From an uncultured Bacteriovorax sp. (GTDB lineage: Bacteria > Bdellovibrionota > UBA1018), in the NCBI GenBank assembly GCA_964508305.1, contig CAZDSX010000002.1:5905-69904 (forward strand): 64,000 nucleotides of DNA. The letters are read 5' to 3'. Numbering within the stretch: the stretch's first letter is position 1; each line of letters opens with the position of its first letter. The position numbers and the translations under genes are program-made. The notes below the pieces were generated by a model. That model was given only the letters and a program-made list of their open reading frames with translations. It had not been told where the DNA came from and made no database searches. This document shows positions 4,913 to 6,786 of this stretch, piece after piece.

Positions 4913-6786
4913 ACACCCGGCGTTCGAGTCCAGGTTTTTCTCTGATTGAGCTCCTGATCTCGGCCTCAGTCGCTGGTTTGAGCGCGCTGATCCTCGGGCA
5001 GGGCATGGTCAACTGGCAGGGCTCCCAAAGCAAGGTTCAGAGCCTGAACCAGCTGGGCGCACTCGAATCCAATCTCAGGCTTTTCTTCAATCAAGGGGTT
5101 CGTTGCGCCGAGTTCATTGCGAACAACTCAGGGGTATTCTCGGGCCTGGGTGCCAGTCCTTCAGGCTCGATCCCCATGAACACGGTCAACCTGGGGTCTT
5201 TTGGGACACTCGCTCTGGGCTCCAAAATTCCGGGAGGCAGTGCTGTTCTTTCAGAGATCTCGTTCGCCTATCAGGTGCTGATGACGCTCCCTGGATCGAC
5301 GCAGATTTTCGCCGGGAGGCTCAACCTCATTTATAAAGAGGGTGGCAGCCAGCGTGATTTTTCCATCCCGATCCAGTTTTTCAGGGTCGCGGGAAGCTGG
5401 TCCTGCAACGCACCCCTCGACACCAGTGCCACGAACCTTAAAGTACTGTGCCAGTTTTGGGGCGGTGGAACGTGGAATGAGACGACTAAAAAGTGTGAAC
5501 GAGGCTTTTGTGCCGAGCTAGGACTGGCAGTGAGTGGTTCCTCAAAGTGTGAAACAAACCTCGCCGCATGTTCGAGCGGCACTTATTGGAGTGGCGTGGA
5601 GGCGGCGAGCTCCGCCCAGCAGTGGAAGAACTCGTGCAGCAAACTCACCCCAGCTCAGGCCGCCTCCAGGCAATGCGGGGCCACTGCTGGAGGCTTGCTG
5701 GGTCTCCCTCTTTCGGGATCAAAGCCAGTCTGTGAAGTGGAGCCTGCTGCCTGCGGCTGGACCCAGTGGAGTGCGTGTGCACCCAGCGCGTGCTGGGACG
5801 GACAAGGTCCGCTCCCTCCTGCTCTCCAGGCAAGGGAGTGCGTCTACAAGTTCAACGGCGTGAGCTCCTGCGATGTGAGCTCGTGCGGTGGAGGTGCCAC
5901 CACACGAGCCTGCTCGCTGGCCTCGACTGACTATCCGATCTGCCCCAGCGCCGGCGTCTGTGGGACGGCAAACAAAGTCATCTACACCACGGCCCCATCC
6001 AAGCCGGCCGAGCTGTGTGCCAAGGGTACGCCCAGTGCTGTCACGGCAACCAAGGCCAACACCGGGCCGCTCATCTACTACGACAAGCGCAACCAGAAGC
6101 GCGTGAACTATGCGGGCGTCCCCTTTGATACTGCGCCCTGGTCTTGGACCTGCCAGGGTCCGGGTGGTGGAACGTCCATCAGCTGCGCGACCGCGCCCAC
6201 CCCGCCCCGTTGCTACATGGCGACTTTCAATCAGCCCGCAGCCGCCAGGAGGGCGCCGTGTTACGAGCAGACGGCGGGCTTTGCAACCCTCACGATGTGC
6301 AAAACCGCCTGGGCCTCGCGAAGTGCGAGTTGTGCGCCTTCGCCCGATGAGTCCGCTTGTACGGCGATCCAGGTGGGAGATCCGCGTGAACCCATCTGCG
6401 TTTCAAATCCGGTGGACGGAGCTTGCGGCACCGCAAACGGCACTGTGGTCAAGACGGCACCGACCCAGCAGGCCGAGCTCTGCGCGGCCGGCCAGCCGTC
6501 GGTAGTTAATGGAACAGGCCCTTGGGACTGGAGTTGCCAAGGGATCTTTGGTGGCGGCACGGTCAGCTGCCGAGCCAACTCTGATTGCTGGGGAGGAGGA
6601 ACTTACGAGCCCGCAGGGTCCCAGTTTAAGATCACGCAGAGGTTTGGTTCCTGCAAATACCCGATCGGCAAGATCGTATCCCGTCTGGAACTGGACCAGG
6701 CCTGTACGCTGCACCTCACGACCTGTGCGCTGCTGGTGGACAACCGCCAGCCTAACTTTGTGGGTTTTCGCTGTATTAGGAAGTAA
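4903..6786 (+). CDS. Prepilin-type protein (MNTRRSSPG|FSLIELLISASVAG) with a ~600-aa Cys-rich ectodomain, a TSP1-like WxxWSxC motif and a tandem repeat
   Basis: Class III signal peptide. About 60 Cys. WTQWSACAPSAC...RAC at 5752-5913. Two copies of a C..PIC..CGTAN..TAP..AELCA.G.PS.V....PW.W.CQG..GGGT.SC domain. The true start is within the listed ORF 4741..6786, at 4903 or 4909. Confidence 0.7.
   Translation: MPMNTRRSSPGFSLIELLISASVAGLSALILGQGMVNWQGSQSKVQSLNQLGALESNLRLFFNQGVRCAEFIANNSGVFSGLGASPSGSIPMNTVNLGSFGTLALGSKIPGGSAVLSEISFAYQVLMTLPGSTQIFAGRLNLIYKEGGSQRDFSIPIQFFRVAGSWSCNAPLDTSATNLKVLCQFWGGGTWNETTKKCERGFCAELGLAVSGSSKCETNLAACSSGTYWSGVEAASSAQQWKNSCSKLTPAQAASRQCGATAGGLLGLPLSGSKPVCEVEPAACGWTQWSACAPSACWDGQGPLPPALQARECVYKFNGVSSCDVSSCGGGATTRACSLASTDYPICPSAGVCGTANKVIYTTAPSKPAELCAKGTPSAVTATKANTGPLIYYDKRNQKRVNYAGVPFDTAPWSWTCQGPGGGTSISCATAPTPPRCYMATFNQPAAARRAPCYEQTAGFATLTMCKTAWASRSASCAPSPDESACTAIQVGDPREPICVSNPVDGACGTANGTVVKTAPTQQAELCAAGQPSVVNGTGPWDWSCQGIFGGGTVSCRANSDCWGGGTYEPAGSQFKITQRFGSCKYPIGKIVSRLELDQACTLHLTTCALLVDNRQPNFVGFRCIRK
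5878..6575 (+). repeat. Intragenic tandem duplication of a ~75-100-aa Cys-rich domain (copy 1 ~5878-6192 with a 27-aa insertion; copy 2 ~6325-6575)
   Basis: Protein-level alignment: CGTANKVIYTTAPSKPAELCAKGTPSAV...PWSWTCQGPGGGTSISCA versus CGTANGTVVKTAPTQQAELCAAGQPSVV...PWDWSCQGIFGGGTVSCRA. Both are preceded by a ..PIC.. segment. Confidence 0.6.

Follow-up and report, generated by a model that had tools for sequence, protein, structure and literature searches.

Modular pilins consist of a pilin module carrying grafted extra modules, and they probably sit at the pilus tip; many of the extra modules have no database signature (PMC8179133). The examples closest to the present case are PilB and PilC of Streptococcus sanguinis, in which the graft is a vWA or a concanavalin-like lectin module (Raynaud et al., 2021; PMC8179133). 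Here we describe protein 3, a Cys-rich, pilin-like protein of 625 aa with 37 Cys, encoded at 4909-6786 on the plus strand of a 64,000-nucleotide stretch of DNA from an uncultured Bacteriovorax sp. (contig CAZDSX010000002.1; hereafter, the window). Like PilB and PilC, protein 3 joins an N-terminal pilin-type signal and helix to non-pilin modules. In contrast to them, its grafts are two copies of a Cys-rich repeat, and its membership of a pilus is putative.

Short, disulfide-rich, extracellular repeats have been described in several families. The repeat of protein 3 (hereafter, the module) has these three properties in common with EGF-like domains, TSP1 and the Myxococcus cysteine-rich repeat (TIGR02232/DUF4215), but differs from them in Cys spacing and is matched by no Pfam or NCBIfam model. 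Spacer and stalk repeats such as Rib, PKD, Big/Ig-like and SdrD_B offer a second comparison; the module is about half as large as an Ig-like domain and, distinct from these repeats, depends on four invariant Cys. The module, though common as a building block, is uncatalogued; it is not confined to this system and represents no categorically new element or mechanism. We consider it reasonably probable that protein 3 is a modular type IV pilin-like subunit that displays disulfide-stabilized scaffold modules, with a hairpin in one of them as a candidate contact surface. On this reading, the apparent system-specific novelty of the locus would turn into a recognizable architecture, a modular pilin with common scaffold modules.

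Two copies of the module in protein 3

Protein 3 contains two homologous Cys-rich copies. Copy 1 (5950-6192, plus strand; 81 aa, AGVCGTAN...TSISCAT) is interrupted by an insertion, and copy 2 (6415-6576, plus strand; 54 aa, DGACGTANGTVVKTAPTQQAELCAAGQPSVVNGTGPWDWSCQGIFGGGTVSCRA) is near-canonical. An earlier sequence-only reading of the window had placed two such copies at 5878-6575, an interval that brackets both. The two copies were aligned by BLASTP with an E-value of 1e-15, 33 identities and one gap of about 27 residues. A profile hidden Markov model (HMM) built from 14 external copies, none of them from the window, was then searched against the six-frame translation of the window. Copy 2 matched this profile over positions 1-52 (61.8 bits, E=3.6e-18). 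Copy 1 matched as two halves, at positions 2-32 and 32-51 (19.4 and 18.9 bits), since the insertion interrupts the match. No other significant match was found in the 64-kb window. Given the profile and BLASTP scores, the similarity of the two copies is real and far beyond chance. Both copies retain the four Cys, the signatures CG..N, P..LC..G, PW.W.C and GG....C, and all invariant columns of the family described below.

The insertion in copy 1 comprises 27 aa (6049-6129, plus strand; TKANTGPLIYYDKRNQKRVNYAGVPFD), as the sequence-only reading had noticed, and appeared as a 27-column gap in the MAFFT alignment. It occupies the loop between 'S.V.G' and 'PW.W.C'. In the coordinates of the profile, the insertion follows match states 30-31 and thus falls in the indel-prone loop of the family (match states 29-34). 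Insertions in the same loop are also present in P0005 and in the viral locus L084. In family instances that were matched without a break, insertions reach about 8 aa at most, a count that instances with split hits would escape. A locus of a Micavibrio sp. (L068, 4798-10473) contains three consecutive signal-peptide genes, each with variants of the module and with insertions in the loop that is expanded in copy 1.

The two copies had been described as a tandem duplication. They are in fact separated by a spacer of about 75 unrelated residues with six further Cys. The linker, the segment before copy 1, the mid-region and the C-terminal tail were aligned to the domain no better than shuffled sequences (z<=1.3). 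A third, degenerate copy was sought in the linker, the segment before copy 1, the C-terminus and protein 2, the product of the preceding gene, and no positive HMM score was obtained in any of them. The degenerate version previously suspected in protein 2 (DCGTAKKTYQILTPASGGGAACP, DCGTAKKTYQ...) has to be dropped: its HMM scores were negative with filters off, its z value against shuffles was about 0, BLASTP gave no alignment to the copies, and the tetrapeptide CGTA is the sole part shared. Head-to-tail arrays with linkers of about 4-8 aa are a common, non-obligatory feature of the family, and protein 3 does not have one.

The window copies share an extracytoplasmic context with the rest of the family and are set apart from it by several features. 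Besides the 27-aa loop of copy 1 and the lack of an array, these are the reading CGTAN, a 2-residue insertion before LC (TAPTQQAELC and TAPSKPAELC) and an extra Cys on each flank (PIC… and …C), all three of which occur in both copies. An insertion at the same position before LC is found in only 49 of 1073 family instances, that is, the complete copies within the best 150 family proteins; an extra Cys on both flanks is found in at most 43 of 1072. On the strength of these three shared features, an origin of the copies by intragenic duplication is favored. Such a duplication must be old, because no nucleotide-level repeat between the two copies was found and copy 2 resembles foreign copies (49-53%) about as closely as it resembles copy 1 (55%).

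An uncatalogued module family and its carriers

The repeating unit is about 52 aa long and has four Cys; the unit of about 100 aa proposed earlier is too long. The modal length of 52 was found in 547 of the 1073 complete instances, within a range of 46-66. The module follows the pattern nGxCGsAnG-x6-P-x3-LC-xxG-x4-V-xGxGPWxWxC-xG-xxGG-x4-CsA, and the family consensus is NGACGSANGETFSSAPTSNLCSAGTASSVSGTGPWSWTCAGVNGGSTASCSA. All four Cys are kept in 1062 of the 1073 instances, W37 is invariant, and G5, P16, G24, G41 and G45 are each conserved in at least 94%. Conservation of this kind, in Cys, Gly, Pro and Trp, is typical of fold-determining residues and looks structural. The copies of protein 3 show the profile match, the four Cys, W37 and all five of the conserved Gly and Pro residues.

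The structure of the module was modeled with AlphaFold2 (AF2). From a 28-sequence alignment, copy 2 was predicted with confidence as a small domain rich in beta structure that has a single short helix (predicted local distance difference test score, pLDDT, 95.2; predicted template modeling score, pTM, 0.76). The core of copy 1 was modeled at a pLDDT of about 90, and its 27-aa insertion as a beta-hairpin at a pLDDT of 60-72. A Foldseek search of the PDB with the copy 2 model gave no match at E<=1e-3. The four invariant Cys are presumed to pair in two disulfides around a mini-core that contains Trp, as suggested by their invariance together with the export signals of the carriers. Paired loss of Cys gave no signal for the disulfide pairing, the Cys being too invariant.

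The family has no entry in the resources that were searched. Pfam-A (24,736 models), NCBIfam r20 and PHROGs contain no family for the repeat in the window proteins; in Pfam-A and NCBIfam, the repeat was without a match at E<=1 when the window proteins were the queries and at E<=10 when canonical copies were. In 48 carrier proteins, too, the repeat region had no match in Pfam, NCBIfam or PHROGs. Searches of PDB sequences with the protein and with a 28-sequence profile gave chance matches only (E>0.5), and no relevant paper came from full-text literature searches on the motif strings or on Cys-rich repeats in pilins of Candidate Phyla Radiation (CPR) bacteria. Within Pfam, NCBIfam, PHROGs and the PDB, the family is therefore uncurated and structurally uncharacterized. 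Membership in the EGF-like, TSP1 or lectin families, an identity under which the module would not have been new, was ruled out with Pfam at the E-values given above.

How far the module extends beyond the window depended on the search method. A word-indexed protein search found nothing with copy 2 as the query. With the whole of protein 3 as the query, it returned protein 3 itself and one domain-sharing protein, P0002, which has two canonical copies (…NGACGSSNGGSDSSAPTANLCSAGTASSVSGSGPWSWSCAGSGGGTSATCSA…) with 54% identity to copy 2; no homolog of protein 3 beyond the shared domain was found in the protein database. An exhaustive HMMER search was then made with a four-sequence profile against 1.84 billion cluster representatives (50% identity clusters). 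It matched 4,359 proteins at E<=1e-3, of which 2,346 reached E<=1e-10 and 570 reached E<=1e-30. As many as 29 stretches were matched within a single protein; single-copy members also exist. P0002 and P0030-P0179 are examples of family proteins. Since at least 4,359 clusters carry a module for which no Pfam, NCBIfam or PDB counterpart was found, curation of a family model and the solution of one structure would give an annotation to thousands of surface proteins that are listed as 'hypothetical'. Pilins from CPR bacteria and from DPANN archaea, two groups with a little-studied surface biology, are among them.

A genome scan with one genome per species gave at least 264 loci carrying the module, in very diverse phyla. 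They include Desulfuromonadales/Geobacter, Syntrophobacteraceae, Nitrospiraceae, Acidobacteriaceae, Alpha-, Beta- and Gammaproteobacteria, Planctomycetales, Udaeobacter, Micavibrio and Bdellovibrionales. Many CPR lineages are represented, such as Peribacteria, Paceibacterota, Magasanikbacteria, Saccharibacteria, Gracilibacteria and Peregrinibacteria, and a Micrarchaeia (DPANN) archaeon is also among the carriers. Cultured carriers include Thiobaca trueperi, Undibacterium sp. and Geomesophilobacter sediminis. On viral contigs the module is rare, with four loci (L084-L087, IMG/VR) among 2.9 million contigs and one phage protein in BFVD (A0A6J5SE33; template modeling (TM) score 0.75, 40% identity); the viral carriers resemble secreted enzymes rather than obvious tail fibers. 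The sequence-only reading had proposed a novel domain, possibly specific to this system, and an HMM search of genomes and metagenomes as a check. The first half of that proposal holds, as the domain is genuine and unmatched in Pfam-A, NCBIfam, PHROGs and the PDB. The second half fails, as the module is widespread in bacteria, CPR bacteria and some archaea.

Nearly all of the best 150 family proteins start with a signal peptide, mostly of the ordinary Sec type, and an extracytoplasmic location of the module is plausible in view of these export signals. In 48 carriers the partner domains, all extracytoplasmic, were OmpA (5 proteins), RCC1 and SBBP propellers, pro-kumamolisin, CarboxypepD_reg, SdrD_B, CBM60, Laminin_G_3, PPC, GH16 and Apiosidase. 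Pilin-type N-termini were recognized by eye in about 8 of the best 150 proteins, or about 5% (P0075, P0077, P0081, P0123, P0139, P0144, P0174 and possibly P0152), and 5 of these passed Pfam N_methyl at E<=1e-3. By a strict regular expression, 1 of 96 domain-bearing open reading frames (ORFs) in the genome loci was pilin-like (L039), an underestimate because the expression missed archaeal class III signal peptides of the FEYLL type, of which at least two occur in L049. Bacterial fusions of the module to pilin-type N-termini are found in P0081, P0123, P0139, P0144, P0174 and L039; fusions to archaeal class III signal peptides are found in P0013, P0077 and two adjacent genes of L049. The latter genes, from the Micrarchaeia archaeon (2696-4480 and 5062-6867), encode Cys-rich proteins with class III signal peptides (RGQG[AS]FEYLL…) and 2 and 7 copies of the module, a pair that parallels the arrangement of the window in another domain of life. 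The co-occurrence with prepilin signals that the sequence-only reading had proposed to check is confined to a minority of carriers. With such varied carriers and so few pilin-type N-termini, the module is promiscuous, and its association with prepilin signals is a recurrent but minority pattern.

The generic role of the module is most likely that of a compact, protease-resistant scaffold or spacer, by analogy with other proteins, in which enzymes, lectin-like domains, propellers and OmpA anchors are joined or projected by arrays with as many as 29 copies. The best of the other explanations is that the module itself binds a ligand, for example a glycan in the manner of a lectin or carbohydrate-binding module, so that protein 3 would be a putative pilus adhesin whose copies bind the target; the sequence-only reading had likewise thought of a binding domain. 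The co-occurrence with CBM60, Laminin_G_3, GH16 and Apiosidase, the exposed-looking aromatics of PWxW, the grafting onto pilin N-termini in several lineages and the frequency of adhesive modules in modular pilins (PMC8179133) are in keeping with this explanation. We nevertheless regard it as unlikely, since the conserved Cys, Gly, Pro and Trp look structural and an array with as many as 29 near-identical copies is more in the manner of a spacer.

Protein 3 as a probable modular pilin-like subunit

The ORF of protein 3 spans 4741-6786 on the plus strand with an annotated start at 4909, and the protein is identical to the NCBI-derived protein P0001. The segment at 4909-5007 (plus strand) encodes a class III (prepilin-type) signal peptide followed by a hydrophobic alpha1-N helix, MNTRRSSPG/FSLIELLISASVAGLSALILG, where the slash separates positions -1 and +1. 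Within it the prepilin motif SSPG/FSLIELLISA, with Gly at -1 and Glu at +5, can be read directly in the sequence. Protein 3 thus has an export signal, as nearly all of the best 150 family proteins do. Two prepilin motifs were found in the whole window, the other being that of protein 2. Matches of the pilin-like proteins to PDB sequences were restricted to the N-terminal helix (E=0.05-1.2), and the weak matches of protein 3 were to the N-termini of PilA and MshA. Subject to a sub-threshold pilin HMM score, protein 3 conforms to the definition of a modular pilin (PMC8179133).

Protein 3 is the last of three consecutive genes. Protein 1 (2283-3506, plus strand; 407 aa; identical to P0029) is Cys-rich and has a hydrophobic N-terminus, EAGISIVSVMAMSAAMISAMMAG, with no Glu at +5. 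No Pfam or NCBIfam family matched it, and it is a possible non-canonical, GspK/PilX-like subunit with no HMM support. Protein 2 (3482-4912, plus strand; 476 aa) is a Cys-rich, pilin-like protein with the motif NRHG/FSLIEIMIAL and no copy of the module; its BLASTP alignment to protein 3 covers the N-terminal helices alone (E=7e-4). The three genes probably form one operon, as they overlap at both junctions (3482 versus 3506 for proteins 1 and 2, 4909 versus 4912 for proteins 2 and 3). A sigma-70-like promoter, recognized by consensus match only, lies just upstream of protein 1 (2240-2269, plus strand; TTGAAG-18-TATAAT, 10/12). Rfam gave no riboswitch or other element in or before the cluster. 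Cys makes up 4.4-7.1% of the three proteins versus less than 1.6% in the products of neighboring genes.

A gene for a PilT/PilU-family type IVa pilus ATPase is located at 38371-39600 (TIGR01420, 434 bits), and its presence indicates that the organism has the retraction machinery of a type IV pilus. PilD, PilB, PilC and PilQ were not found among the window ORFs scanned, in which PilT/PilU is the sole pilus machinery gene.

From these features the following model may be drawn. The class III signal peptide and hydrophobic helix of protein 3 would be processed by a prepilin peptidase, after which the protein would enter a type IV filament. There it would most likely be a tip subunit or one of low abundance, alongside the other two Cys-rich, pilin-like products of the putative operon. 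Its C-terminal region, with the two modules, would be displayed outside the cytoplasm, where the modules may stiffen and extend the exposed head. The predicted 27-aa beta-hairpin of copy 1 would be the best candidate for a lineage-specific contact surface, possibly a binding hairpin.

Several points weigh against this model. Proteins 2 and 3 score slightly under the curated cut-offs for N_methyl (PF07963; 20.1 and 18.8 bits, cut-off 21.2) and TIGR02532 (16.2 and 15.3 bits, cut-off 16.3). No type IV pilus assembly genes or prepilin peptidase adjoin the cluster, and PilT/PilU is about 32 kb away. Two non-adjacent copies make a 'stalk' role less obvious than it is in long arrays. Finally, the atypical codon usage of the cluster and the lack of an orthologue, both detailed below, make expression and function in the host organism less certain.

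In a further explanation, the three proteins are pseudopilin-like or class-III-signal-anchored surface proteins of a type II secretion-like or bindosome-like kind, and the helix merely anchors or exports the ectodomains. The tip pseudopilin GspK lacks Glu at +5, and protein 1 is like it in this respect. The explanation also draws on the lack of pilus machinery next to the cluster and on the archaeal relatives with class III signal peptides that carry the same module. It cannot be separated by sequence from the type IV pilin reading, as G/FSLIE is canonical for both type IVa and type II secretion system (T2SS) pilins. No T2SS genes were seen in the window, however, and a PilT/PilU-family retraction ATPase is present; we therefore judge it quite improbable. 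GspK has itself been mentioned as a tip-located modular pseudopilin (PMC8179133).

The tRNA-adjacent islet and the rest of the window

The cluster encoding the modular pilin-like protein 3 ends at a tRNA gene. ARAGORN identified a tRNA-Leu(CAG) gene at 6788-6874 on the minus strand (Rfam tRNA, 55.4 bits), the 3' end of which abuts the stop codon of protein 3. The window was compared by blastn with L080, a related metagenome contig with 70-80% nucleotide identity. The two are collinear at 1-2153 and 6784-12283 of the window. The 4.6-kb segment at 2154-6783, which holds the three-gene cluster, has no counterpart at the syntenic site of L080; about 18 bp (12197-12214) stand in its place, and the tRNA gene comes directly after the M15 peptidase gene. 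Three further related, independently assembled contigs with 87% nucleotide identity (L081, L082 and L083) all end inside the tRNA-Leu gene, at about position 6845 of the window, a hint that this site varies at the population level or contains a repeat. No orthologues of proteins 2 and 3 were found in JGI metagenome contigs.

The segment contains only the three pilin-like ORFs and no integrase, and no att-like direct repeat was found between the tRNA end and the boundary at 2100-2300. Of the features of a genomic island, adjacency to a tRNA 3' end and absence from a relative are present, and an integrase and att repeats are absent. The cluster is therefore a lineage-specific islet at a tRNA gene and not a classical integrative element. 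As such, it is a candidate variable adhesin cassette. A more far-reaching reading holds that the module is a large, undescribed extracytoplasmic family, with thousands of clusters from Proteobacteria to CPR bacteria and DPANN archaea, that it has a new, disulfide-stabilized fold, and that type IV filaments have recruited it repeatedly as an exposed module. Here it would belong to a horizontally mobile, tRNA-adjacent adhesin cassette that comprises three pilin-like proteins extremely rich in Cys, with a lineage-specific binding specificity set by the hairpin of copy 1. We hold this reading to be doubtful.

The cluster genes differ in composition from their neighbors. The GC content at third codon positions (GC3) is 0.62-0.685 in the cluster versus 0.71-0.835 in neighboring genes, and the correlation of relative synonymous codon usage (RSCU) with neighboring genes is 0.53-0.74 versus 0.86-0.96. 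The atypical GC3 and RSCU, the position beside a tRNA gene, the absence from a related contig and the lack of orthologues would suit a decaying, horizontally acquired remnant with functionless relics of the module, but this is very improbable given three long, intact, overlapping ORFs, a good promoter-like site before the cluster, retention of every invariant family position in both copies and AF2 models that fold confidently.

Two segments of the cluster proteins have the look of a TSP type 1 repeat, at 5752-5925 of the window (protein 3 residues ~282-339; CGWTQWSAC…) and in protein 2 residues ~325-370 (GEWQVDCG…GGGAACP). The resemblance is unsupported by Pfam TSP_1, which gave only E=9, on a segment of protein 3 outside the module copies.

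The presence of Lgt and LspA and an OmpA-type context are the basis on which the source organism appears to be diderm, a point of difference from the setting of the Streptococcus sanguinis pilins. Elsewhere in the window, a dcw-type cluster with Mur ligases contains a gene for an FtsI-like penicillin-binding protein (Transpeptidase and PBP_dimer domains; 49908-51968) with a C-terminal PASTA domain, an unusual combination for a bacterium with Lgt, LspA and an OmpA-type context. Three large minus-strand ORFs, at 45743-47263, 48218-49321 and 54547-56871, were assigned to no Pfam or NCBIfam family at E<=1e-5, and some of them may be shadow ORFs that lie opposite genes of the other strand.

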